Notes: generated by a model from the letters alone, not told the origin. A stretch of DNA of 64,000 nucleotides from Anaeromyxobacter sp. (GCA_049840735.1 JASGJN010000007.1:210680-274679); one strand, 5' to 3'. Shown: positions 26,097 to 44,363, counted from the stretch's first letter. Numbers and translations are program-made.

Positions 26097-28061
26097 ATGA
26101 CGCGACTCGCACCCCTGCTCCTGGCGCTGCTCCTCCTCCCGACCGCCTCCCGGGCGGACACCTCCGAGGAGCTGACCATCCTCAGCTACCACGAGGTCTC
26201 CGACGCCAAGGACGCGCTGGAGGCGTCCTACGCGGTCACGCCGACCAACTTCCTGCGCCAGATGGACTGGCTGCGGAACCACGGCTACCGCTTCGTCGGC
26301 ATCGACGACCTGGTGGCGGCGCGGCAGGGCAGGCGCCCGCTGCCGGACAAGGCGGTCCTGGTCACCTTCGACGACGCCTACCAGTCGGTCTACGACCACG
26401 CCTGGCCGGTGCTGAAGATGTTCCGCATCCCGGCGGTGGTGAACGTGGTGGGCTCGTGGCTGGAGACGCAGGGGACGCTCCAGTTCGACGGCAAGCCCAC
26501 CGCCCGCAGCCGGCTGCTCTCCTGGGCCGAGCTGAAGGAGATGGTGGACAGCGGGCTGGTGGAGGTGGGCAGCCACAGCTTCGACCTGCACCAGGGCGTG
26601 CAGGGCAACCCGCAGGGCAACCTGGAGCCGGCGGCCATCACGCGCCGATACCTGCCGGAGCAGAAGCGCTACGAGGACGAGGCCACCTACCGCAAGCGCG
26701 TGGAGGCGGACCTGGAGCGGAACAGCGCGCTCATCAAGCGGCGCACCGGCAAGGCGCCGCGGGTGGTGGCCTGGCCCTACGGGCGCTACAACCAGACCAC
26801 GCGCGAGCTGGCCGAGCGGCTGGGGATGCCCATCGGCCTGACGCTGGACGACGGCGCCAACATGCCCGGGACGCCGCTGTGGGGGCTGCGGCGGATCCTG
26901 GTGGAGGGCGGCTTCCGGCTCTGGGACCTGGAGCGCGAGATCACCATCCGCAACCAGAACCTGTCGGACAACGACCGGCCGGCCAAGGTGATGCACGTCG
27001 ATCTGGACTACCTGTACGACCCCGATCCGGCCCAGACCGATCGCAACCTGGGCCACCTGCTGGACCGGATCTGGTTCATGGGCGTGAACACGGTCTACCT
27101 GCAGGCCTTCGCGGATCCGGACGGCAACGGGGCCGCCGACGCGGTCTACTTCCCCTGCCGGCGCATGCCCACCCGCGCCGACCTGTTCAACCGGGTGGCC
27201 TGGCAGATCCGCACCCGCACCAACGTCCGGCGCCTCTACGCCTGGATGCCGGTGCTGGCCTGGCAGCTGCCCGCCGGCGATCCGGCCGCGGGGGACAAGG
27301 TGGTGGCCGCCGCCGGCGGCGACTCGGCGGGGCGGGTGGACATGGGCTACCCGCGCCTCTCGCCCTTCTCGCCGCGCGCGCGGCAGGCCGTCCGGGAGAT
27401 CTACGAGGACCTGGCCCGCACCTCGATGTTCGACGGCCTCCTCTTCCACGACGACCTGACCCTCTCCGACCACGAGGACGCCAGCAGCTTCGGGCTGGCG
27501 GCCTACAAGGCCTGGGGGCTGCCCGGCTCGGTGGAGGAGATCCGCCGGAGCGACGACCTGCTGGGGCGGTGGACCATCTTCAAGATCAACGCGCTCGACG
27601 ACCTGGCCCTGGAGCTCGCGGCGGTGGTCCGGGCCCAGCAGCCGGCGCTGGTGGTGGGGCGGAACCTGTACGCGCGGGTGGTGCTCAACCCCAGGGCCGA
27701 GGTCTGGTACGCGCAGTCCCTCGACAACTCGCTGGCCCGCTACGACTTCACCGCCATCATGGCCATGCCGTACATGGAGAACGCCGCCGACCCGGCCGCC
27801 TTCTTCCACGAGCTGGCGGACGCGGTGAACGACCGCCCCGGCGCCATGAAGAAGGTCGTCTTCGAGCTGCAGGCCGTGGACTGGCGCGGCGGCAACAAGC
27901 CCGTGCCCTCGGAGGAGCTGGCCGCCACCATCCGCAGCCTCTACGGGATGGGCGTCCAGCACGTGGGGTACTATCCGGACGTCATGTTCGACAACCACCC
28001 GGCGCCGGCGGTGATGAAGCCGGTGCTGGATCTCAAGCCCAACGCCTTCGGGACGCGCTGA
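26097..28061 (+). CDS. pgaB: Poly-beta-1,6-GlcNAc N-deacetylase (CE4 + GH153)
   Basis: LSYHEV, VTFDD, SHSFDLH, WPYG, MHVDLDY.YD, VYLQAFADPDG, FHDD, IMAMPYME, GYYPD. Confidence 0.95.
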   Translation: MTRLAPLLLALLLLPTASRADTSEELTILSYHEVSDAKDALEASYAVTPTNFLRQMDWLRNHGYRFVGIDDLVAARQGRRPLPDKAVLVTFDDAYQSVYDHAWPVLKMFRIPAVVNVVGSWLETQGTLQFDGKPTARSRLLSWAELKEMVDSGLVEVGSHSFDLHQGVQGNPQGNLEPAAITRRYLPEQKRYEDEATYRKRVEADLERNSALIKRRTGKAPRVVAWPYGRYNQTTRELAERLGMPIGLTLDDGANMPGTPLWGLRRILVEGGFRLWDLEREITIRNQNLSDNDRPAKVMHVDLDYLYDPDPAQTDRNLGHLLDRIWFMGVNTVYLQAFADPDGNGAADAVYFPCRRMPTRADLFNRVAWQIRTRTNVRRLYAWMPVLAWQLPAGDPAAGDKVVAAAGGDSAGRVDMGYPRLSPFSPRARQAVREIYEDLARTSMFDGLLFHDDLTLSDHEDASSFGLAAYKAWGLPGSVEEIRRSDDLLGRWTIFKINALDDLALELAAVVRAQQPALVVGRNLYARVVLNPRAEVWYAQSLDNSLARYDFTAIMAMPYMENAADPAAFFHELADAVNDRPGAMKKVVFELQAVDWRGGNKPVPSEELAATIRSLYGMGVQHVGYYPDVMFDNHPAPAVMKPVLDLKPNAFGTR

Positions 28062-28070
28062 GAGGCCCCG

Positions 28071-29336
28071 GTGACCGCGCCACTCGACGCCTTCTGGAGC
28101 GTGCTGCTGGCGTTCGTCTTCTGGTACCCGCTGTTCATGTCGTACCTGTGGATGCTCGGGGCCGCGCTGTTCTACTGGCGGTTCGAGCGCCCGGAGCCGG
28201 CCTGGGATCACCCGCCCGAGCTGGCCCGCTCGCCGCCCATCTCCGTGCTGGTCCCCCTCTACAACGAGGAGGAGAACGCGGAGGAGACGCTGACGCAGGC
28301 GCTGGCGCTGGACTACCCGGAGTTCGAGGTCATCGCCGTCAACGACGGCAGCAAGGACGGGACCGGGGCGGTCATCGACCGGCTGGCCGCCCTGCACCCC
28401 CGGCTCAAGGCCGTGCACCTGGCGCAGAACCAGGGCAAGGCCATGGGGCTCCAGGCCGCCTGCCTCCTGGCGCGCCACGAGCTCTTGCTCTGCATCGACG
28501 GGGACGCGCTCATCGACCGGCACGCCGCCCGGTGGATGGTCCGCCACTTCGTGGAGGACCCGCACGTGGCGGCCGTGACCGGCAACCCGCGCATCCGCAA
28601 CCGCTCCACGCTCATCGGGCGGGTGCAGGTGGGCGAGTTCTCGTCGATCGTGGGGATCATCAAGCGGGCGCAGCGCATCTTCGGCCGCATCTTCACCGTC
28701 AGCGGCGTGATCGGCGCCTTCCGCAAGGCGGCCATCCACGACGTGGGCTACTGGAGCCCGGACGTGATGACCGAGGACATCGACATCACCTGGAAGCTCC
28801 ACCGGGCCGGGTGGGAGGTGCGGTTCGAGCCGCGGGCGCTGATCTGGATCCTCATGCCCGAGACGCTGCGCGGGCTCTGGAAGCAGCGGCTCCGCTGGGC
28901 CATGGGCGGCGCGCAGGTGCTGCTCAAGAACCTGCACCTGCTGCTCCACCCGCGGCGCAGCTACCTCTGGCCGCTCCTGGTGGAGATGGTGGCCAGCCTG
29001 GCCTGGGCCTACGCCATGCTGCTCCTGACGCTGGCCTGGGTGGTCTCGCCGTTCCTCCCCGCCGGCGCCGCGCCGGTGACCAGCTCGCCGCTGAGCCCGG
29101 CCGGCGGCGGGATGATGCTGGGCGCCACCTGCCTGCTCCAGTTCGTCTTCAGCTGGTGGCTGGACAGCCGCTACGACCGCGGGCTGGGCCGGAACCTGTT
29201 CTGGATGATCTGGTACCCGGTGGTCTTCTGGATCATCAACAGCGTCTCGACCGTCTGGGCGCTGCCCAAGGTGCTGGTGCGGGGCCGCGGCGCCCGGGCG
29301 CGCTGGGTGAGCCCGGATCGCGGCTTCAGGCCGTGA
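28071..29336 (+). CDS. pgaC: Poly-beta-1,6-GlcNAc synthase (GT2)
   Basis: P.YNEE, NDGS.D, NQGKA, CIDGDA, TGNPRIRNR, TEDID, QRLRW. Confidence 0.96.
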   Translation: MTAPLDAFWSVLLAFVFWYPLFMSYLWMLGAALFYWRFERPEPAWDHPPELARSPPISVLVPLYNEEENAEETLTQALALDYPEFEVIAVNDGSKDGTGAVIDRLAALHPRLKAVHLAQNQGKAMGLQAACLLARHELLLCIDGDALIDRHAARWMVRHFVEDPHVAAVTGNPRIRNRSTLIGRVQVGEFSSIVGIIKRAQRIFGRIFTVSGVIGAFRKAAIHDVGYWSPDVMTEDIDITWKLHRAGWEVRFEPRALIWILMPETLRGLWKQRLRWAMGGAQVLLKNLHLLLHPRRSYLWPLLVEMVASLAWAYAMLLLTLAWVVSPFLPAGAAPVTSSPLSPAGGGMMLGATCLLQFVFSWWLDSRYDRGLGRNLFWMIWYPVVFWIINSVSTVWALPKVLVRGRGARARWVSPDRGFRP

Positions 29337-29358
29337 TCCGCGTGTAGGTGGCGCACCT

Positions 29359-29381
29359 CCAGGCGGCATCTCGCCGCCTGG
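29359..29381. other. Perfect hairpin in the pgaC-pgaD spacer
   Basis: CCAGGCGGC-atctc-GCCGCCTGG. Confidence 0.5.
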
Positions 29382-29541
29382 CCGGGGAGCTAGGTCCTCG
29401 GGTCCGGCCGGTGCGACACAAGGCCGCATTCTTGGGCCCGGCGTGAACATCTACAAGGGCCCGCCCGTCCAGCCGGCAGAGCGCAACCCCCACGCCCCCC
29501 TGGGCGAAGGGCCAGGCAGGGCGCGCAGCGAGGTAGACGCA

Positions 29542-30006
29542 GTGAGCGACACCCTCATCATCGACGCGCGGCACCGGCTGCGCTGGCACCAGCGCCTCGT
29601 CTCCGACGCGTCCACCGCCACGCTGTGGGGCGTCTGGCTGTGGCTGTGGTCGCCCGTGGTCCGGTCGCTCGAGTGGGCCTCGCACCTGGGACACCGCGGC
29701 TACCCGTTCATGCTGAAGTGGCTCTCCGCCGGGCCGGTGACCGACCTCGACCACGCGGCGGTGCTGCTGGCCGGGACCTCCGGGACGCTGCTGGTCTGGA
29801 AGGGGCTGGCCGCCCAGCGGCCCAGCCTCCCGCCGCCGTGCTCCGAGCACGACTACGCCGGCCACTTCGGCGTGGCCATGGAGCAGCTGCGGGCCGCCCA
29901 GGGCGCCTCGGTCTGCGTGGTGCACCACGACGAGAGCGGCCGGATCGTGCGCCTGGAGTGCCGCGCCTCCGCCTCCGCCTCCGCAGCCGCGCAGGCCGCC
30001 GCGTAG
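29542..30006 (+). CDS. pgaD: PNAG biosynthesis accessory protein PgaD-like
   Basis: LIIDARHRLRWHQRL..T..LW..WLWLW, two TMs, A.HFGV...VVHHDESGRI. GAGG RBS; lies after pgaC. Confidence 0.75.
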   Translation: MSDTLIIDARHRLRWHQRLVSDASTATLWGVWLWLWSPVVRSLEWASHLGHRGYPFMLKWLSAGPVTDLDHAAVLLAGTSGTLLVWKGLAAQRPSLPPPCSEHDYAGHFGVAMEQLRAAQGASVCVVHHDESGRIVRLECRASASASAAAQAAA

Positions 30007-34288: not shown

Positions 34289-34993
34289 TCAGCTCGGCGG
34301 GTTCTTCCGCTTCTTCTTCCGCTTCAGCGCCGCCCGGCGGCGCTTCGCCCACGCGTCCGTGCCGATGTACGTCGCCCGCACCAGGTCCTCGCGCCGCTCC
34401 TCGGCCTGGGCCTTCCGCCGCTGCTTCGCCTTCCCCTCCTGATCGGCGCACAGCGCCTGGTACTTCTTCCGGCGCGTCACGTCCGTCTTCCCCAGCGCCA
34501 GATACTCCGGCAGGTCGTCGATGAGCGGGTGCCGCTCGCCGTACGCGTAGTGCCGGTGGCTCGAGTACGCGTAGTCCTTGGCGCTCCTCACCATGCCGGC
34601 CATCACCGGGTTGCGGTCCCCGTAGCCCGACACGAGCAGCGGCGCCTCGCCCCCCGTCTCCACCTGCCCGGAGTAGAGCCGCTCCATGACCACCTGCCCG
34701 CAGCGCTCCGTCTGCTCGTTGTACCAGCGCGCGAACACGCTGTTCACGTCGCGCCAGAAGCCGCTGAACGCCGCCTGGCCGCGCGTGGCCTTGAGCTGCA
34801 CGTGCACGTGCGTGGTCATGATGCAGAAGGAGTGGATGAGGATGCCGTACTTGCCCTTGTACTTGGCTAGCAGCGACAGGTAGAGCTCCGGCGCCCCCGC
34901 CAGCTCGAAGATCCGCGAGTGGTTATGGGCCTGCCAGGTGCAGTGATGCACCGTGCCCTCGCCCACCAGCCATCTTCTCGCGGTCCGCCCCAC
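34289..34993 (-). mobile_element. REP-associated tyrosine transposase (RAYT; HUH Y1 / IS200-like TnpA)
   Basis: HHCTWQAHNHSRIF, FCIMTTHVH (HUH), Y..RNPV.AG, DY.YSS..Y. GTG start near 34993; 3' part of track ORF 34289..37084. Confidence 0.85.
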
Positions 34994-35229: not shown

Positions 35230-35868
35230 CTACTTCTTGAAGTAGCGCCGCGCCTCCTTGGCCACGCCCTTGATGAAATCCTCGGTCAGCTGCGCGGTGG
35301 TCAGCGTCGCGTTCGCGGTGGTGGAGTCGCTCTGGCAGCCCCACACCACCTTCCGCTTCGACACGTCCCAGAATCGTCGTCTCGGCGGTGATGGTCCGCA
35401 CCTCCGCCATCTCCGGCTTGCGGTACAGGCCGTACGAGGTCGTCACGTACCCGTAGTAATCATCGAACCCGGTCTCGACGGGCACCCACTGCTCGCGCCC
35501 CTGGTGCAGCTCCTTCTCGGCGCCGACGCGCGCGATGCGCACCACAATCAGCGAGTCGACGCCGGAGGCGAGCACCGGCCTCCTTGATCCTTCTCCCGGT
35601 CGCCGAGGTCCTCGTCCCCGAGCACGTCGTGGCTGCGCACGGCCTCCACCCCGCGCGACTGCAGCTGCGCGCTGATCTTGTCCTCGGCGGTCACGCGCCG
35701 CTTGTCCTCGGCCGCCAGCACCACCACCATCGGCTTCTTGAACTGGGCCCCCTTCGACTCGGGGTCGGACCAGCTGCGGGTGATCTCCGTGTTGGAGGAG
35801 CACCCGGCGGCGGCGAGGGCCAGGAGCGCGGCCGCGAGGGGCTTCAAGCTGGTCGAGGTGGTCGACAT
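35230..35868 (-). CDS. DUF4136-like lipoprotein (frameshifted)
   Basis: Lipobox AAGC, SW.DP, R..AED. Continues across frames into GVDSLIVVR...ET.I.D....VVW. Confidence 0.65.
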
Positions 35869-35968: not shown

Positions 35969-36506
35969 ATGACCTCCGCCCCCCGGCGCCGCCTCGCGCC
36001 CCTCCTCCTGCCGCTGGCGCTCCTCCTGGGCGCGGGCTGCAAGACCATCGAGGTGTCCAACACCTTCCCGCCCGGCACCGAGTTCGCGCGCTACCACAGC
36101 TTCGCGCTGGTGCCGCAGGCGGAGCTGGACCAGCGCTTCGGCAAGTCGGCGCTGCGCCCGGAGGCCCGGCAGGTGATCGAGACGGCGCTGGTCCGCGAGC
36201 TCCAGGGGCGCGGCCTCACCTCCGCCCCCGCGCCGGCCGACCTCTGGGTGGCCTACTTCGCGGGCGTCGCCTCCGTCGCCGACAGCCGCATCTCCGGCTA
36301 CAAGTACGAGTGGTCCGGCGGCGCGACGGCCTCCCCGGTCGCCGTCCAGAACGAGAATCGACTCGGGCTGGATCACGGTCGACCTCGTCGACACCAAGAC
36401 GGGCGAGCTGGTCTGGCGCGGCAAGGGCCAGGTCCAGAAGCCCGACCGCGAGGCGGTCGACGCGGTGGTCACGGCCCTGGTGGCGCAGTACCCGCACCTC
36501 CGCTGA
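35969..36506 (+). CDS. DUF4136 family lipoprotein (frameshift near 36360)
   Basis: Lipobox GAGC, F..Y.SF, L..RG....ADL.V.Y. Shifted C-terminus reads ITVDLVDTKTGELVWRG...QYPHLR*. Confidence 0.72.
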
Positions 36507-36559
36507 GCGCCAGCGCGCCGGCTCGGGCGCCGCGGCCTCCCTGGTCTACAATCCCACCG

Positions 36560-37000
36560 ATGCTGGGCCGCCTGCTCCGCTCCGCGGTGGTGACGCTGGC
36601 CGGCGCCCCCGCGCCGCGGGTGCGCGGCGTGGAGCGCGTCCGCGCCGCCGGCCTGCGCGCGCTGCTCATGGCCACGCTGGCCGGCCGGCCGCTCGACGAG
36701 GTGCTGGCCCTCCTGGACGCCGCCCCGGCGACCGGGGAGGACGTCCGCATCCCCCGGGCGCTGCGCCGCTGGCCAACCACCTGCCTCTACCGCTCGCTCG
36801 CCGGCTACGCCCGCCTCCGGGCGGTGGGTGAGGACGTCCGGTTCGTGATAGGAATCGCCGCCGTGGACGGCGATCTCGCCGGGCACGCCTGGCTCGAGCG
36901 GGCCGGCGAACCGCTCGGCGAGCCGGAAGATCCGCGCCGGCGCTACGCCGTCGCGTACACGCACCCGCCGCGCCCGTCCCCGGAGGTCCCGGTGCTCCCA
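36560..37000 (+). CDS. Lasso peptide B2-type leader peptidase (transglutaminase-like, Transglut_core3); 3' end uncertain
   Basis: TTCLYRSLA (catalytic Cys) and VRFVIGI...LAGHAWLE (His plus acidic residue), the B2 pattern. Embedded in track ORF 35969..39388. Confidence 0.85.
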
Positions 37001-37310
37001 GCCACCCAGGCCCCGCCCCAGCCCCGACGTGCTCCTGACCGAGCTGGCCGACGGCACGGGGGTGCTGCTGCACCTCCGCACCAAGTTCTATTACGCGCTC
37101 AACGCCACCGGCGTGGTGGTCTGGAAGCTGCTCGCCTCGGGCGAGGCGGCCACCCTCGAGGCGCTGGCCGCCGCCGTGGTCGCGCGCTTCCAGGGTGCCG
37201 AGGAGGCGCGGGCCCGCGCCGACGTCTCGACGCTCCTGGCCGAGCTGCAGGACGAGGGGCTGCTCCTGCCGGCCGCGCCGGCCTCCGCCGCACCGGGCGA
37301 GGCGAGGTAG
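36992..37310 (+). CDS. PqqD family RiPP recognition element (lasso B1-like); probable indel near 37005
   Basis: PRPSPDVLLTELADGTGVLLHLRTKFYYALNATGVVVWKLL...RF....ARADV..LL.EL..EGLL. GGAGG at 36982 precedes GTG 36992. Confidence 0.88.
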
Positions 37311-37313
37311 TCG

Positions 37314-38429
37314 GTGCCCACCGCCACCCCGCCGGGCACCGCCGCCGCGCGACGCCTGGTGACGGCGTGCCTGGTGCGCTCCCACGCCCTGGAGCGCCTG
37401 GCGGAGGGCGGCGACTGGGAGGGCGCGCTCTCCCTGGCCAGCGCCCACGCCGTGGCCGAGCCGCTGGCCGACGTGGCCCTGGCGCTCCCGCCCGCGCCGT
37501 GCCGCCGGCGCTCCGCGAGCGGCTCTCCGAGCTGAGCGCGGCGGCGGCCGCCAAGAACGCGCTGCTGCTCAGCGACCTGGCGCGGGTCCAGGCGACGCTG
37601 CGGGCGGCGGGCGTCGCCTCCCGTGGCGATGAAGGGGACGGCGCTGCTGGCGTACGGCCACTACCGCTCGCCGGCGGCGCGCCACCTCTCCGACGTCGAC
37701 CTGCTGGTTCGCCCGCGCGACGTCCCGGCCGCGGTTGCGGCGCTCCGGGCCGCCGGCCTGGCCCCGCCCTCCGGCGCGCTCCCGGCCCTCGACGGCCGCT
37801 CCGACGCTCTGGGCCGCAACCCCGGCGATGCCCACCTGAAGCCGGTGGAGACCTGGTCCGGCGGGCTCCTGGAGCTGCACGATCGGCTGCCCGGCGGAGG
37901 GCCGCCGGCGGATGCGCTGATCGCGGCCGCGGTCGAGGTGCGCTGGTCAGGCCAGCGCGTGGACGTCCCGGCGCTGGTCGACCTGGCCGGCATGCTCTGC
38001 CGCCACGCGCTGGTGGCCCACGCCGAGGAGCCGCGCCTGCGGGCGCGCCACGTCGCCAATCTGGCGGCGCTCGCGCCGGCCGGCGTGGAGTGGGCCGCCG
38101 TGGGCCGGCGCTACGGCCGCGCCGTGGTGCGAGAGTCGCTGGCGCTGCTGGAGGCGGCCCGCGCCGAGGCGGAGGCCGGCACGCCGGCGCCGGCCCACCT
38201 GGCGCTGCTCGCGCCGGTGGGCGCAACCTACCGCGCCCGCGCCCGCTGGCGGCGGCTCCTCTCGCCGAGCGCGCCCTCGCTGCCGGCGCTCGCCCGCGCC
38301 CTCTTCCCGGCCCCGGGGTACATGCGCGCGCGCTACGGGCTTCCGGCCGACGCGCCCTGGTCGGCCATCTGGCACCTCTACCCGCGCCGCCTCCTCTCCG
38401 GCGCCTTCCGCTTCCTGGCGGGGCGATGA
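37314..38429 (+). CDS. Nucleotidyltransferase family protein (NTP_transf_5); two frameshifts (~37490, ~37620)
   Basis: DW..L..A..H.V..L; N.LL..DL..V...L..AGV; MKGTAL...Y...RHLSDVDLLV; LELH. Confidence 0.82.
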
Positions 38430-39388
38430 GGCGGTCCCTCCACGGGCTCGAGGTGCAGGTGACCGGCTCGCTCCCGGCCGCGCTGGTCGGTGAGCTGCTG
38501 GGCGGCTTCCCCGAGGGCGACCCGGGGCGCCCGCCGGACCTGGTCATGGCGCTGGAGCCGGCGCGAGGCGCGCCTCCCCCCGGGCTCGAGCCGGTGTTCT
38601 GGTACGAGGGGCTGCGGGCCTACCGCGACGCCGGCGGGGTGTGGCTGGCGCACGGCGACTCGACGGCCCGGCTCACGCAGGGCGGCGCGCGGATCGAGGT
38701 CGGGGTCGGCGCCGACGGTCAGCGTGGCGAGCACCTCTTCCAGCACCTGCTGGTCTTCACCGCGCTCCTGCGCGCCCTGTCGACCCGCGGCCTGCACCAC
38801 CTCCACGCGGCAGGCCTGGTCCTGCCCACCGGGCGCACGGTGCTGGTCACCGGGACGGCCGGCTCGGGCAAGACCACGCTGGCGCTGGCGCTGCTCGAGG
38901 CCGGGCTCGGGTTCCTCGGCGACGACGTGGTGCTGGTGGCCGAGCGCGCCGGCGCGCCGGCGCTGCTCGCGTTCCCGCGCACCTTCCACGTCGGCCCGGC
39001 CACCGCAGCGGCCAGCTCGGCCCGGGCGGCCCTGGTGGGCGCGCTGTACGGCGCGACCGACAAGCGCGAGCTCGACGCCGCCCGCGCCTTTCCTGGCCAG
39101 GCCCGCACCGCCGCCGCCGCGGCCGCGCTGGTCCTGCTCCCCGCGGTGACCGAGGCGGCGACGACCACGGTGGACCGCTGCTCGGGCGCTGACGCCCTGG
39201 TGGCGCTGCTCGAGTCGAGCGCCTACCTGGCGGTTGACGAGGAGCCGGTTGTGCGCGCCCGTGTCGCACTCCTGGCGGGGCTGGTGAGCGGTGCCCTCGC
39301 GTATCGGGTCCGTCTCGGCAGGGACATTCTGGAAACCCCTATGCAGGTGGCCAGAACGCTGTTGACGATATCCCCCGAACGAGGGTGA
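38426..39388 (+). CDS. HPr kinase-related (HprK-like) P-loop kinase
   Basis: LHAAGL, GTAGSGKTT Walker A, FLGDDVVLV. ATGA overlap with the nucleotidyltransferase stop. Confidence 0.88.
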   Translation: MRRSLHGLEVQVTGSLPAALVGELLGGFPEGDPGRPPDLVMALEPARGAPPPGLEPVFWYEGLRAYRDAGGVWLAHGDSTARLTQGGARIEVGVGADGQRGEHLFQHLLVFTALLRALSTRGLHHLHAAGLVLPTGRTVLVTGTAGSGKTTLALALLEAGLGFLGDDVVLVAERAGAPALLAFPRTFHVGPATAAASSARAALVGALYGATDKRELDAARAFPGQARTAAAAAALVLLPAVTEAATTTVDRCSGADALVALLESSAYLAVDEEPVVRARVALLAGLVSGALAYRVRLGRDILETPMQVARTLLTISPERG

Positions 39389-39515
39389 TTCGCGTGCTTG
39401 CCCCGTGGATGCCCGGATTGACCTGAACGCCCAAACGACCAATCGTGTGACCTCCAAGCAGCCTGGGGTTCGTGCGCCCTTTGGGCGTCCCGACCCACCT
39501 TTGGGGACCGTTCAC

Positions 39516-41921
39516 ATGCTCAGTTCCACGCGGCCGTCCTGGCTTCGACTCACGGTGATGTTCGGCGCCGCACTCGCACTCTCGGTAGGGTGCGCCAAGC
39601 AGCCGCCCAAGCAAGTGGTCCTGGCCGAGTTCCAGGGCACGGTCGATCCCACCACGGGCACGCTCAGCTTCGGGACCGACGACGCGGGCCCCCGGATGGT
39701 GGCGGTGATGGCGGGCTTCCCCACCATCGACAAGAACGGCCACGCCGGGACCGCGGCGCTGCCGAACAGCCTCGAGCTGGTGACGGAGCAGACCAGCACC
39801 TCGGCGGCGGACTGCGGCCGCCCCAACGCGTTCTGCGGCAAGGTGACGATCCGTTCCTTCTACGCCGGCAGCGAGATCCACAACCTGTACGTCCAGATCA
39901 TCTCGATGACGCCCGGAACCGGCGCGCTCGGCTTCTCGAACTCGGCTCACCCGGCGATGGATCCCGTCGACGGGACGGCGGTCAACGCGAACTTCGGCCT
40001 CTGGGCCTACCCGGCGCTGCTGGACGGCGGCAACAACGATGGCACCTTCAGCGGCACCAGCACCGCCGGCGCCAACGCGGCCACGCGCTGGTGGTACTTC
40101 GACAACCTCACGCCGCAGCCGCACACGTTCGTGGCGCGCGTCATCGGCGAGCTCGTCACCCCTGCGGCGGACGCGACCGGCCTGGAGGCCACCTGCGGCT
40201 ACGACGCGGCGGGCGCGAACGGGACCCGCCGGCAGCTGGACACCACCACCGACTGCGGCGAGTGCGGCCGGACCTCGGAGGGCACCGCCTGCAACTACGC
40301 GGTGACCGGCGGCTACCGCGACAGCTCCTCGGCCGTCGAGTGGAGCGTGGGCGAGGGCGCGCTGTGCGAGATCGCCACCGCCTGCGACACCGCCGATGCC
40401 GCCGGCTATGTCTGCCGCGACCTCGCGACGGACACCGCCAACTGCGGCGCCTGCGGGGTGACCTGCGGCGCCGGAGAGGTCTGCAACAGCGGCGTGTGCG
40501 AGGTGGCCTGCGCGGTGGGCCAGTCCGTGTGCAATAGCGCCTGCTGCCCCGCCGGTTCAGACTGCCTGTCCGGCACCTGCGTCCTGAGCGACGTCACCCA
40601 GTTCTCTGTCGGCACCGACCACGCCTGCGCCATCACCACGGATTCACGGCTCTCCGCGATCACCTGGGTGGACAACGGCGCGGGGACGCCCACCACCACC
40701 AACAACGTGGTCTGCTGGGGCCAGAACCACCTCTCGAACTGGGGCAACCCGGTCTGGACCCGGGCGCTGGCCGCGCCGGAGCTCTTCCCCAACTTCGGGC
40801 AGTTCCACCTCAACGACGACATGCGCGACGTGGCCAGCGGCTATCTCGACTCGCTGGCCTTCAGCGCAACCCCCGACATCTCGGTCCGCCGCTGGGGCAG
40901 CATGGCGGTGCTCGACTTCCAGAACGTGGTGGATGGCTGGCACACCCGCGGCACCAAGTCCGCCATCGGCGCGCACCATGGCTGCTCGCTGTTCAACTAC
41001 CTCATCGGCGACGAGCTCATCGGCCCCAACCCCGAGGGCATCTACTGCTGGGGAGACAACGACGCCGGGCAGATCGGCAACGACGGCGATCCAGCGCTGT
41101 TCTGTGGCCCGGACGGGAACGGTATCATCGGCCAGGACCGGAGCACGATCTGCTTCCCGCTCTCGCTGACCGGCTTGAACTGGATCACCGGGGCCAGCGG
41201 CAGCGGGCTGACCGGGACGGACATCGCTGCGGGCGGCGACACCACCTGCGTGGTCGAGGCGGCGCCAGGCTGTGCGCCGGACTTCGGTCAGTGCCACGGC
41301 GGCGGCCAAACCGCCGGCCGCGTGGCCTGCTGGGGCGACAACACCGACGGCAAGGCCGGCCAGGCCGCCGCCGGTCCGTTCTTCGCGCCGGTCGAGCTGC
41401 CCATCATCGACGGCACCACCCACGTGGCGACGCAGGTCGCGGTCGGTGAGCACCACGGCGTGGCGCGGCTCTCCAGCGGCGCGCTCGCCTTCTGGGGGCG
41501 CAACGCCGAGGGCGAGCACGGCGACGGCAGCACCACCTCCACGGCCGGCCAGGTCGACATCGTCACCCCGGCCGTGCCCGCCGTCCAGGTCGCCGCCGGC
41601 GCCGACTTCACCTGCTACCTGGGCACCGACACCAACGTGTACTGCGCCGGCGCCAACGCCTATGGCCAGCTCGGCAACGGCACCACCGACCCGAGCACCG
41701 TGTTCGTCCAAGTGATCGGCCTCGGCGGCATCACCGCCATCAGCGCCGGCGGTGTGGGTCCTCCGGGCGGCCCGAACTACGGCTCCGCCTGCGCGCTCGA
41801 CGGAGACGGCATCGTCTACTGCTGGGGCAACAACACGCAGGGCCAGCTCGGCCGCGGCGACACGACCAACAGCTCGCTCGCTGCGCCGGTCCAGGTCCCG
41901 TCCGTCCCCCCTCTCCCTTGA
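39516..41921 (+). CDS. Large surface lipoprotein with Cys-rich repeats and RCC1-like propeller repeats
   Basis: Lipobox SVGC; CRDLATDTANCGACGVTCGAGEVCNSGVC; RCC1-type repeats YCWGDNDAGQIG, YCAGANAYGQLGNG, YCWGNNTQGQLGRG. Confidence 0.85.
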   Translation: MLSSTRPSWLRLTVMFGAALALSVGCAKQPPKQVVLAEFQGTVDPTTGTLSFGTDDAGPRMVAVMAGFPTIDKNGHAGTAALPNSLELVTEQTSTSAADCGRPNAFCGKVTIRSFYAGSEIHNLYVQIISMTPGTGALGFSNSAHPAMDPVDGTAVNANFGLWAYPALLDGGNNDGTFSGTSTAGANAATRWWYFDNLTPQPHTFVARVIGELVTPAADATGLEATCGYDAAGANGTRRQLDTTTDCGECGRTSEGTACNYAVTGGYRDSSSAVEWSVGEGALCEIATACDTADAAGYVCRDLATDTANCGACGVTCGAGEVCNSGVCEVACAVGQSVCNSACCPAGSDCLSGTCVLSDVTQFSVGTDHACAITTDSRLSAITWVDNGAGTPTTTNNVVCWGQNHLSNWGNPVWTRALAAPELFPNFGQFHLNDDMRDVASGYLDSLAFSATPDISVRRWGSMAVLDFQNVVDGWHTRGTKSAIGAHHGCSLFNYLIGDELIGPNPEGIYCWGDNDAGQIGNDGDPALFCGPDGNGIIGQDRSTICFPLSLTGLNWITGASGSGLTGTDIAAGGDTTCVVEAAPGCAPDFGQCHGGGQTAGRVACWGDNTDGKAGQAAAGPFFAPVELPIIDGTTHVATQVAVGEHHGVARLSSGALAFWGRNAEGEHGDGSTTSTAGQVDIVTPAVPAVQVAAGADFTCYLGTDTNVYCAGANAYGQLGNGTTDPSTVFVQVIGLGGITAISAGGVGPPGGPNYGSACALDGDGIVYCWGNNTQGQLGRGDTTNSSLAAPVQVPSVPPLP

Positions 41922-41953
41922 CATCCACCTGAAAACCGCGGGAAACCAGAATC

Positions 41954-42136
41954 ATGCGTGATGACCAGCAGGGCCGCCCCGAAGTGCCGGCGCACGCCGA
42001 CCAGCGCCCGGCCTACGAGCCGCCGCGCATCGTGAAGCGGCGCTCGCTCACCCGCGTCACCGGCCAGGTGACCGGCACGACGCCGGGCGGAAACGGCACC
42101 ACCGCCACCGGCCAGGACCTCACCGGAGGCGGGTAA
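41954..42136 (+). CDS. Putative RiPP precursor peptide (lasso-type leader, Thr/Gly-rich core)
   Basis: YEPPRIVKRRSLTRVT matches the YxxPxLxxxGxLxxxT spacing; 60 aa; sits in a cluster with an RRE and a B2 peptidase. Confidence 0.82.
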   Translation: MRDDQQGRPEVPAHADQRPAYEPPRIVKRRSLTRVTGQVTGTTPGGNGTTATGQDLTGGG

Positions 42137-42140
42137 GCGC

Positions 42141-43298
42141 TTGCGCCTCGCTCCCCTGCTGGCGGGCGTGCTGGCCCTCGCCGCCTGCCGCAGCGGCTCC
42201 AGCGCACCGCCGCCATGCGGCGAGCTGGGTGAGGCGTGCTGCGCCACAGGCGAGGCCTGCGGCACGGACCTCCGCTGCGACGCCGGCATCTGCCAGCCGT
42301 GCGGCGCGAGCGGCCAGGCCTGCTGCACCACCGGCGCTGCTTGCGGCGCCAGCCTGAACTGCGTCGCGTCGAGCTGCGAGCCCTGCGGCACCCAGGGGCT
42401 GGCCTGCTGCACCACCGGCCTCGCCTGCGGCGCGGGCCTGGAGTGTGCCGAGTCCACCTGCCTGGACGTCTGCCGGCTGGACAAGCCGGGGATCACCTGG
42501 CTGGCGTTCACCCACGTGAGCGGCGGCAACTACGACGTCGATCTGGTGCACGACGACGGCACCTGCCGCGTCCCCGCGGTGGCCGGCGCGGCCACCGACA
42601 ACTTCCCCGCCTTCAGCCCGCCCGACCTGGGGCTGCTGGTCTTCTCCAGCACCCGCGGCGGCGCGCCTGGCCTCTACACCCGCGATCTCGCTGCGGGCAC
42701 GGAGCAGGGCGTCCCGGTGGTGGGCGTCACCGCCACGGCACCTCGCTACTCACCCGACGGCATCTGGATCGCCTTCGAGGGCAAGGCGACGAGCGCCACG
42801 CGCACCGACGTCTACCGGGTGCTGCGGGTCGGCGGACAACCGATGGCGCTCACCGGGGCGCCGGGCAACAGCGCCGGTCCGGTCTACTCGCCCGACGGCA
42901 GCACCGTCTACTTGGTCTCCAACCGCGCCGGCGCCTACCAGGTCTACGCCGTGGCCGCCGACGGAGGCACCGCCACGCTGGTCTCCGGGACCAGCGGCAT
43001 CCAGGGCCGGCCCGCGCTCTCGCCCGACGGCACCCAGCTCGCGTTCACCCGCATCAACGCCTCCAGCGTGGCCGAGGTGGCGGTGAAGGATCTGGTCGGC
43101 GGCGGCGTGCGGGTGGTCTCGGCGCAGGGCGACGCCGATCCCTGCTTCGACGCCACCGGCGCCCGCCTGGCCGTGAGCAGCTCGCGCGGTGGCGACCACG
43201 CCATCTGGATCCTCGACGCCAGCGACGGCGGCAACGCGGTGCGCGTCACCACGCCGTCGGCCGGCGAGATCGACGGCCAGCCGGCCTTCAGGCCCTAG
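42141..43298 (+). CDS. Lipoprotein with Cys-rich tandem repeats and TolB-like (PD40) propeller
   Basis: Lipobox LAAC; PAFSP, PRYSPDG..IAF, PVYSPDG, PALSPDG..LAF repeats. Confidence 0.85.
   Translation: MRLAPLLAGVLALAACRSGSSAPPPCGELGEACCATGEACGTDLRCDAGICQPCGASGQACCTTGAACGASLNCVASSCEPCGTQGLACCTTGLACGAGLECAESTCLDVCRLDKPGITWLAFTHVSGGNYDVDLVHDDGTCRVPAVAGAATDNFPAFSPPDLGLLVFSSTRGGAPGLYTRDLAAGTEQGVPVVGVTATAPRYSPDGIWIAFEGKATSATRTDVYRVLRVGGQPMALTGAPGNSAGPVYSPDGSTVYLVSNRAGAYQVYAVAADGGTATLVSGTSGIQGRPALSPDGTQLAFTRINASSVAEVAVKDLVGGGVRVVSAQGDADPCFDATGARLAVSSSRGGDHAIWILDASDGGNAVRVTTPSAGEIDGQPAFRP
42213..42464 (+). repeat. Three 28-aa (84-bp) Cys-rich tandem repeats
   Basis: PCGELGEACCATGEACGTDLRCDAGICQ / PCGASGQACCTTGAACGASLNCVASSCE / PCGTQGLACCTTGLACGAGLECAESTCL. 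Confidence 0.85.
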
Positions 43299-43306
43299 GT
43301 CACCCC

Positions 43307-44363
43307 ATGTCGTGCAAATCGGGTCGTCTTCCACGTCACCGACCGCTGCCACCTGGACTGCGTCCACTGCCTGCGCGATCCGGCGAAGAAGCCGCTCGAC
43401 GTCCCGCCCGAGCTGGTCGCGAAGGTCACGCGGCGGGCGCACCAGCTCTACGGCACGTCGCACGTCGGCCTGACCGGCGGCGAGCCGGTGCTGCACCCCG
43501 GCCTGGCCGGGATCCTGGACGCGATCGTGGCCGAGGGGTGCACCTGGCACGTGGTCACGAGCGGCGGTCACTTCGAGCGGCTCACCGCGCTCCTCGACCA
43601 GGATCCGCGCCGCCGCGAGGCGCTCACGGCCATCAACTTCAGCCTCGACGGACCGCGCGAGGAGGTGCACGACGCCATCCGCGGCCCGGGCGCCTTCCGG
43701 GCGGTCATGGCCGCCATGGCCCGCTGTCAGGCCGCCCACATCCCGTTCTCGGTCCAGACCGCGCTGAACGCGCTCAACGCCGACACGCTGGAGGAGCTGG
43801 GCATGGCGGTGGCGCACCTGGGCGCGAGCCAGCTGATGGTCGCCATGACCCAGCCGACGGGCACGCCTCGCGACCAGGCCCTGGCCCTGCCGCGCGGCGC
43901 CTGGGCCGGCGTCCGCGACAGGGCCGTCCGGCTGGCGGACACGCTCCGCATGCCCGTGGTGCTGTCCGAGGGCTTCCCGGAGACCACCCGGCTCCACGTC
44001 TGTGGCCCCTGGCGCCTCGAGACCCTCCACGTCGATCCGCACGGCCGGCTCTCGATGTGCTGCCAGCTCTCGGGCACGCCGGGCGAGGACGTGGACGTGG
44101 TGGCCGACCTGGCCGAGTGCGACCTGGCGGTGGCGGTGGAGCGGCTGCTGGGCCTGGTCCAGGCGCAGCAGCGCCGGCGCCTGGCCGAGATCACCGCCGG
44201 CCCAGGGGACGCCTGGGACGCCTTCCCCTGCAACACCTGCCTGCGCAGCCTTGGCAAGCCGCACTGGACCGACGCCGGCGCGGGCGGCCCGCAGGCCCGG
44301 CGCGAGCGGTTCGGCGTGGAGGTGCGCTGGCCGCTGCCGTCGCCCACGCCCGGCAAGCGCTGA
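43307..44363 (+). CDS. Radical SAM enzyme with SPASM/twitch-like C-terminus (5' indel near 43317)
   Basis: In frame upstream of track ORF 43488: VVFHVTDRCHLDCVHCLR (CX3CX2C), LTGGEP, FSLDG...HDAIRG.G.F. C-terminal CGPW...DPHG..MCC...CNTC. Confidence 0.88.

Follow-up and report, generated by a model that had tools for sequence, protein, structure and literature searches.

Linear polyphosphorylated peptides (LPPs) of the Bacillota, described by Popov et al. in 2026 (PMC13381572), are the published counterpart of the system discussed here. According to the portion of that paper available to us, LPP precursors share a motif of Tyr, Pro, Thr and phosphorylated Ser at positions 1, 4, 16 and 19; Ser3 is phosphorylated; the clusters lie in capsule loci; and the biological roles of LPPs and of paeninodins are unknown, neither the final product nor the role of the nucleoside triphosphate (NTP) transferase having been found. 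Among the phosphorylated lasso peptides, the kinase BsfK of Bradymonas phosphorylates Ser3 or Thr3, and the bsf cluster borders an FG-GAP repeat gene presumed by its authors to be uninvolved (PMC10368454, available part). PsmN, of the pseudomycoidin pathway, needs its DxD motif and is required for the hexose on the phosphate (PMC6993621, available part). We describe a cluster of related genes in Anaeromyxobacter sp. that directs, we propose, the synthesis of a peptide that is made by the ribosome and modified after translation (a RiPP). It lies in a stretch of 64,000 nucleotides, ‘the window’ (G000:C7:210680-274679), of an assembly, G000, that comprises 6.67 Mb in 26 contigs and is 94% complete. 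Weak matches to myxobacterial profiles fit this origin.

Within this bacterial family, the pathway is accompanied almost always by adhesin-like lipoproteins, and this suggests that linear phosphopeptides of its class act at the cell surface. The reading we lean towards is a functional peptide–lipoprotein partnership at the cell surface, between a linear peptide that would be phosphorylated on Ser or Thr, and probably phosphoglycosylated, and lipoproteins that share a domain here called ‘NTD’. By GC3 (third-codon-position GC) frame plot and profile scans, the cluster has eight elements, all on the + strand, between 36560 and 44363. They stand co-oriented in the order given by an earlier, sequence-only reading of this DNA: leader peptidase (B2), RiPP recognition element (RRE), NTP_transf_5, kinase, lipoprotein A, peptide, lipoprotein B and radical S-adenosylmethionine (SAM) enzyme. 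The scans also bear out its 60-aa peptide between two Cys-rich lipoproteins, the first of RCC1 and the second of TolB type. B2 and RRE, which it listed as separate genes, are both present and form one fused gene. The features are as follows.

36560..37310, + strand: B2-RRE fusion, B2 first and RRE second (PF13471 and PF05402), with one frame switch near 36995-37010
37314..38429, + strand: NTP_transf_5 protein, PsmN/LppN-like, with a DxD motif and frame switches near 37495 and 37620
38426..39388, + strand: HprK-related peptide kinase, intact, 320 aa (TIGR04355/TIGR04352 E 1e-7 to 6e-7, far below cut-off)
39516..41921, + strand: lipoprotein A, 801 aa, with lipobox-like Cys26 (by pattern only), NTD, a Cys-rich stretch and an RCC1-like propeller
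39609..40163, + strand: NTD, a conserved beta-sandwich of ~170 residues without a Pfam or NCBIfam name
41954..42136, + strand: precursor, 60 aa, with leader 1-37 that includes Tyr21-x-x-Pro24 and Thr36 (family profile E 3.3e-16)
42065..42133, + strand: predicted core, 23 aa, Gly/Thr-rich, its cut site placed by the lasso Thr(-2) rule
42141..43298, + strand: lipoprotein B, 385 aa, with lipobox-like Cys16, a Cys-rich repeat, a TolB-like PD40 propeller and 22 Cys (PF07676 E 1.5e-23)
43307..44363, + strand: radical SAM enzyme (PF04055 E 2.7e-19), with a frame switch right after the ATG at 43307

The proposed partnership rests first on how the parts are distributed among 92 genomes of the same family. 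A B2 query finds a match in 22 of these and the RRE adds three, giving an RRE module in 25/92; among 211 genomes drawn from the class's other families, a B2-RRE profile has no match at E<=1e-20. NTD occurs in exactly the same 25 genomes, and the remaining 67 carry neither, so that none of the 92 is discordant. The NTD profile was built from system genomes, yet it picks up members outside the family (E 1e-12 to 1e-31), and its sensitivity inside the family should therefore suffice. Among the 25 system genomes the precursor is found in 24, the kinase in 24 (as well as in G015) and a close TolB-like homologue in 24, the weakest of these overlapping the housekeeping TolB-like gene in score. The system is patchy across three genera (8/37, 9/14 and 8/13). 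Conservation in other genomes was named as a test by the sequence-only reading, and the gene set is indeed conserved; the lipoproteins, which that reading took to be merely interleaved, behave as core members of the system.

Adjacency points the same way. A whole-genome profile search finds 43 precursors in 24 genomes, and 37 of them, two in frameshifted stretches, abut an NTD gene on the same strand. The order of the pair varies by genus: the precursor precedes NTD in g4 and mostly follows it in g1 and g11. Stand-alone precursor–NTD pairs are found at a distance from the enzymes, and the two genes increase in copy number together (11 NTD genes and seven precursors in G057, seven and six in G058). 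G032 keeps all of the parts, although they are scattered over four places. An independent scan of metagenome DNA for the leader pattern yielded 13 loci, of which five have a firm adjacent NTD-family gene and one a weak one. Outside the family, NTD occurs in 6/296 genomes of a phylum sample, and two of these, G373 and G374, have a precursor next to NTD. Searches of a genome-contig collection for related loci with B2 or P0105 as query found none. At three loci (L075, L076 and L079) the NTD lipoprotein is followed directly by the TolB-like lipoprotein, without a precursor between them.

Other arrangements of similar enzymes occur as well. A sister type of cyclase-less cluster is found at L125, L132, L133 and L143 within the family and at L097 and L099 in G113. 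Besides an RRE and a kinase, it has a small peptide whose leader reads Y-x-P-P-A, a small lipoprotein, a large secreted protein and, often, a peptidase of S26-like type. The secreted proteins, of 840-2670 aa, have Kelch, PQQ-like or FG-GAP/immunoglobulin (Ig) repeats where scanned, and no NTD match where tested. At L134 and L144 the kinase comes directly after the RRE, and peptide, large protein and lipoprotein are all absent. Two further cyclase-less sets are unrelated to the NTD-linked precursors: L147:9508-13275 (G058) holds B2, RRE, kinase, two near-identical precursors and an NTP-transferase-like gene, and L048:8503-10182 (G057) a small set of B2, RRE and kinase. An operon at L140-L142, L145, L146, L149 and L150 encodes a PqqD-like protein of 89 aa, an ATP-grasp-like protein, a 448-aa protein with an N-terminal Y-x-x-P, a membrane protein of ~725 aa and two more gene products.

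The part of lipoprotein A that is conserved is the first ~170 residues after the signal peptide, not the Cys-rich stretch or the RCC1 repeats; the whole protein has 35 Cys. This NTD is predicted to fold as a beta-sandwich (AlphaFold2, mean pLDDT 74.6). Pfam and NCBIfam profiles have no match over the domain, and its best Atlas feature, with a score of 0.87, is unnamed. Among solved structures, Foldseek finds no match at E<=0.001, and the best match by VIA is weak (Z 8.6, rmsd 3.1, 116 aligned). Envelope proteins of white spot syndrome virus head the fold matches by a weak beta-sandwich likeness that we do not take as homology. Type V pilins and S-layer proteins are not among the fold matches, which does not exclude them. 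The family comprises 516 representatives at E<=1e-3. Among the best 150, the domain is nearly always N-terminal in proteins of 147-3029 aa, and 109 of the 139 NTD proteins that have a Met start show a lipobox-like pattern. The remainder of each protein, its ‘cargo’, has Ig-like, FG-GAP, RCC1, cadherin, lectin, PKD, LTD or CHRD domains in 29/43 scanned proteins and no match in the other 14. Judged by the TIGR02800 cut-off and the TolB N-terminal domain, lipoprotein B is not the TolB of the Tol-Pal system: it scores 120.6 bits against the cut-off of 343. Close homologues of it stand beside the cluster in relatives, and most family genomes, G000 included, have a separate, weaker TolB-like gene. 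Complex prediction for NTD and the precursor of a relative (L032, genome G003) scored 0.00 in both runs, with an uncertain partner fold and controls that were not folded. NTD appears to mark an undescribed family of adhesin-like lipoproteins, and its pairing with the precursor appears new: within open-access text, no description was found of the family, the pairing or the reversed B2-RRE fusion.

The precursor family holds its leader register closely. In an alignment of 41 of the 43 precursors, two with run-on ends being omitted, Y1, P4 and R5 are present in 41/41, T16 in 40/41 and Ser/Thr19 in 35/41; the window precursor has its Thr at position 20, one residue later. The cores are 13-24 aa long and Gly-rich, and all 41 have Ser or Thr within residues 1-3. 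Six have a Cys pair, and 22 have Asp or Glu at core positions 7-9. Cys and aromatic residues are absent from the window core, as is Asp/Glu at 7-9, and its candidate phospho-acceptor is core Thr3 (precursor Thr40). This is the position targeted by BsfK, given B2 cleavage of the window precursor (PMC10368454, available part). RRE, strong B2 and precursor of this type occur once each in G000. The one-to-one gene pairing would also fit a different division of labour, in which the lipoproteins themselves would be what the enzymes modify, ahead of export, with the small peptide as a leader or activator in trans; NTD does have conserved stretches containing Ser/Thr. We consider this improbable, given that every core keeps Ser/Thr in the register that LppK and BsfK use on their own precursors and that a leader peptidase (B2 or S26) is kept in all but one of the system-genome modules examined.

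The enzymes carry the expected motifs. B2 matches PF13471 (E 1e-14), exceeds the NF033537 cut-off and has catalytic Cys75 and His109; the RRE matches PF05402 (E 1.4e-16); and no stop separates the two parts in the window. Usually, B fusions have the RRE first. Here intact one-frame fusions of 230-255 aa with the peptidase first account for 20 matches in 19 relatives, in addition to G030 and G089. L038 and L039 have, besides the fusion, a second, stand-alone RRE directly before the kinase. In G054 and G055, two of the three genomes with an RRE alone, an S26/SpI-like peptidase (TIGR02228 E 1e-9 to 1e-10, below cut-off) lies beside the module in place of B2. Inside the system, the S26-like peptidase is fused to NTP_transf_5 at L049:5628-7310 (G055) and to a GNAT acetyltransferase at L050:6213-7094 (G054). 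The three consecutive pieces of the NTP transferase correspond to one intact open reading frame (ORF) of 375 aa at L024 (genome G030), which matches PF14907 at E 9e-42; the C-terminal piece by itself matches at E 1.2e-16. Against sequences in the PDB, the NTP transferase has no match at E<=1. The kinase has His127, a P-loop from Gly143 and Asp-Asp at 166, its Gly-to-Asp spacing of 23 equalling that between G163 and D186 of BsfK (PMC10368454, available part). The HPr-rel-A/HprK-related systems TIGR04352, TIGR04353 and TIGR04355 supply the best named models for the window kinase and RRE; with scores of 29-36 against 200 bits and 19.9 against a cut-off of 35, the window is not a member by those models.

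Four frame switches interrupt the 7.8-kb cluster: one between B2 and RRE near 37000, two in the NTP transferase and one at the start of the radical SAM gene. They strike three of the four enzyme genes, and the window copy could accordingly be a decaying pseudogene cluster of a system that is real in relatives. This is compatible with the other readings, and we rate it as unlikely. With 142 intact proteins from relatives as queries on G000, nine switches appear in eight of 32 well-conserved genes (12,968 aa), a background of 0.23 per kb at which four or more in 7.8 kb have P=0.11. Moreover, no in-frame stop occurs, and the catalytic motifs are preserved. The simplest reading of the frameshifts, judged from the sequence, is that they are assembly errors. 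The 1139-aa ORF at 35969-39388, said by the sequence-only reading to hide several genes, does so: by GC3 frame plot, it spans DUF4136, B2, the middle piece of the NTP transferase and the whole kinase, and is a chance open frame.

The radical SAM enzyme is optional. It is present in 15/25 system genomes and in none of the other 67 family genomes, and we reject it as a defining enzyme. The earlier label ‘SPASM’ is not supported: the hallmark of SPASM is a seven-Cys motif for two auxiliary clusters (PMC6231123, available part), which the window enzyme does not have. Twelve sequences share five invariant C-terminal Cys, and Pfam SPASM has no match at E<=1e-3. The best sequence matches are PqqE, SkfB and BlsE, and the best fold match is SkfB (E 1.9e-13, TM 0.58); no cut-off of a named Twitch or SPASM family (SkfB, PqqE, BlsE, BtrN) is reached. 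Given the five Cys, the missing SPASM match and the fold match to SkfB, the enzyme is probably of Twitch type with one auxiliary cluster; the Cys pattern fits the Twitch layout of Cys before and after the hairpin and two after the helix, but the model is poor in that part (pLDDT <50 at 217-232 and 248-258). Sactionine and cyclophane chemistry are excluded for the window core, as it contains neither Cys nor an aromatic residue. The enzyme might close a hairpin that a disulfide replaces elsewhere: Cys pairs occur in six of the ten system genomes that have no such enzyme, yet also in G058 and L107, which have it.

Leader, RRE and B2 are all of the lasso type: the leader has Y-x-x-P-x-hydrophobic and Thr(-2), and B2 has its Cys and His. 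Together with the 22 of 41 precursors that offer Asp/Glu at core 7-9, they could indicate a lasso pathway with its cyclase at another place in the genome. This is largely refuted, and we give it very little weight. The whole-genome PF00733 search that the earlier reading had asked for finds three full-length genes in G000, all on other contigs; they start with a glutaminase domain, pass TIGR01536, fail NF033535 and NF033561, and are of AsnB type. Loci L024-L048, 25 in all, are without an asparagine-synthetase match. A search of five relatives gives six full-length PF00733 genes, of which five have a glutaminase N-terminus and one (L121) lies among glycosyltransferase-like genes; G057, with its seven precursors, has no full-length match. 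The window core offers no acceptor at 7-9, and 19 of the 41 cores are without one. For the window, neither a macrolactam cyclase, in cluster or genome, nor a ring acceptor is at hand. The earlier description of the cluster as cyclase-less stands. Elsewhere in the family, L139:7274-10940 (G067) looks by eye like a conventional lasso cluster, with a 612-aa cyclase-like gene, a precursor, an RRE and a B2-like gene, and kinase and NTP-transferase-like genes converge on it.

Several loci link the system to surface glycans. A PF00953 WecA-like gene lies directly before the NTP transferase (G015, G027, G032), the kinase (G057) or the RRE (G056), and the NTD–precursor–NTP block of G373 sits among sugar-biosynthesis genes. 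In G032, system genes are interleaved with what, from sequence motifs, we take to be rml-, wza- and wzc-like genes. The window cluster itself contains no exporter. A family-wide ABC exporter, at G000:C2:95819-97555 in the present genome, adjoins the cluster in several relatives; being family-wide, it is rejected as a dedicated component, for which it is unproven.

From these parts we propose the following mechanism. The RRE half of B2-RRE would bind the Y-x-x-P leader, which we hold to be very probable, and the HprK-like kinase would then, with only slightly less assurance, phosphorylate Ser/Thr in core residues 1-3, Thr40 in the window. The NTP transferase may well join a sugar or glycan to the phosphate as a phosphodiester, as PsmN does with a hexose; for this reason +hexose is a better expectation than the nucleotidylation (+NMP) foreseen earlier, PsmN being the characterised homologue needed for hexose on phosphate (PMC6993621, available part). 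Where present, the radical SAM enzyme would tailor the peptide or its sugar. B2 would cut after residue 37, in all likelihood without formation of a ring. Export would quite plausibly proceed through the family-wide ABC exporter or together with surface polysaccharide. Outside the cell, finally, the peptide would serve, somewhat more probably than otherwise, as ligand of NTD, of the TolB-like propeller or of both. Characterised homologues and intact motifs are the grounds for leader binding, for phosphorylation and for a leader removal that makes no ring; PsmN and the WecA neighbourhood point to the attachment of a sugar, and only the gene pairing points to a role with NTD or the propeller.

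The version of this last step that we prefer, tentatively, is RiPP-based surface display. Here a peptide linked through phospho-Ser/Thr to a surface glycan would be a handle gripped by NTD, and would tether the fused adhesin, lectin or enzyme to capsule or lipopolysaccharide, holding or displaying adhesin-like cargo. The TolB-like lipoprotein would chaperone the peptide or hand it over, and the same principle would recur in the sister cluster type, whose large secreted proteins are unrelated. If the tether exists, a RiPP would serve here not as antibiotic or signal but as a structural adaptor in the display of proteins, and would yield a genetically encodable peptide–domain pair. Surface association of the product, already suspected in the sequence-only reading, has gained strong genomic support. 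A surface role could also mean a peptide that diffuses freely as signal or antagonist, with the lipoproteins as its receptors or immunity proteins. Cores do differ between lineages, as strain-specific signals do; the TolB-like gene precedes or follows the precursor in many loci; and propellers of TolB type bind peptides. Yet in g4, paralogous cores are nearly identical, each beside a different NTD protein with different cargo; the cargo is adhesin-like and reaches 3000 aa; and the loci share no conserved regulator or uptake transporter of their own. We therefore regard a signal as possible and rather unlikely.

A number of observations weigh against the partnership and the mechanism set out above. 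The genomes are related, so the co-occurrence counts (25/0/0/67) are not independent events. Of the 56 NTD genes, 37 have an adjacent precursor and 19 do not, some of these at contig ends or frameshifted, and six of the 43 precursors have no adjacent NTD gene. Four of the 13 metagenome loci likewise have none, three of these sharing one identical peptide, and three others cannot be judged. Outside the family, module and precursor lie away from NTD in G327 and G376, and in G113 and G123 NTD is present but a precursor of this family is not detected. Kinase and NTP transferase occur in G015 (82% complete), where neither NTD nor precursor gives a match. The window core is atypical, with no Phe1 and no clear Gly-Gly-hydrophobic-Ile-Gly end, and the window cluster is not in a polysaccharide locus. 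The ABC exporter matches in 75/92 genomes at E<=1e-100, and is not specific to the system. LppN had no detectable effect in the heterologous LPP host, and the main text on Bacillota LPPs, whose clusters work, makes no mention of lipoproteins (PMC13381572). The unpaired NTD genes, those of G113 and G123 included, and the lipoprotein-free LPP clusters would suit lipoproteins that merely travel with a surface-structure island, through shared inheritance or regulation, and are physically unconnected with the peptide. This strikes us as a little less likely still than a signal: there is no discordance between RRE module and NTD, adjacency survives both the switch in gene order and dispersal from the enzymes, and in the sister cluster type, peptide and large secreted protein are missing jointly (L134, L144).

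Upstream of the cluster, two small lipoprotein-like genes, one of them DUF4136, diverge at 35969-36507 (+) and 35230-35868 (-), both apparently frameshifted. Since DUF4136 has no match in the relatives’ loci L024-L048, we place it outside the system. An IS200-like (Y1) transposase-like gene (34289-34966, -; PF01797 E 1e-4) lies 1.6 kb upstream of the cluster. Three genes at 26097-30006 (+), 6.5 kb upstream, presumably resemble the exopolysaccharide genes pgaB, pgaC and pgaD.

How does the system compare, then, with those already known? The sequence-only reading supposed that lasso machinery had been redeployed in an uncharacterised class. Redeployment without a lasso cyclase has held up; the novelty of the class has not, since the cyclase-less module of RRE, HprK and NTP transferase has a published counterpart in LPP (PMC13381572, available part, as for all LPP features that follow). 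The two share the RRE, the HprK-like kinase and the NTP transferase, and neither has a cyclase. Most precursors of the present family also resemble those of LPP in the Y-x-x-P leader and its register of Thr16 and Ser/Thr19, from which the window precursor deviates with its Thr at position 20. Both systems have a link to polysaccharide loci. They differ in that LPP clusters have a SipW-like signal peptidase I (SpI) and a discrete RRE, whereas the window has a Cys-type B2 fused before the RRE, and in that LPP clusters include an MsbA-like exporter, whereas the window cluster has none. His-Gln and Phe-Glu, which belong to the LPP motif, are missing here. Unlike LPP, the present system has an optional radical SAM enzyme, cores of 13-24 aa and paired NTD and TolB-like lipoproteins, and it belongs to a different phylum. 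With the phosphorylated lasso peptides, namely Bsf (PMC10368454), pseudomycoidin (PMC6993621) and paeninodin, it has B1/B2, kinase and NTP transferase in common, as far as the available accounts go; it departs from them in having no macrolactam cyclase or conserved ring acceptor, and in its reversed B fusion. The pathway is LPP-like, but without the SpI peptidase and the in-cluster exporter, and it is not a lasso cluster. LPP-type enzyme logic has named candidate partners here in the NTD family and a TolB-like propeller, and its genes repeatedly stand behind a WecA-like one; the role of LPPs thereby becomes accessible to binding and knockout tests.

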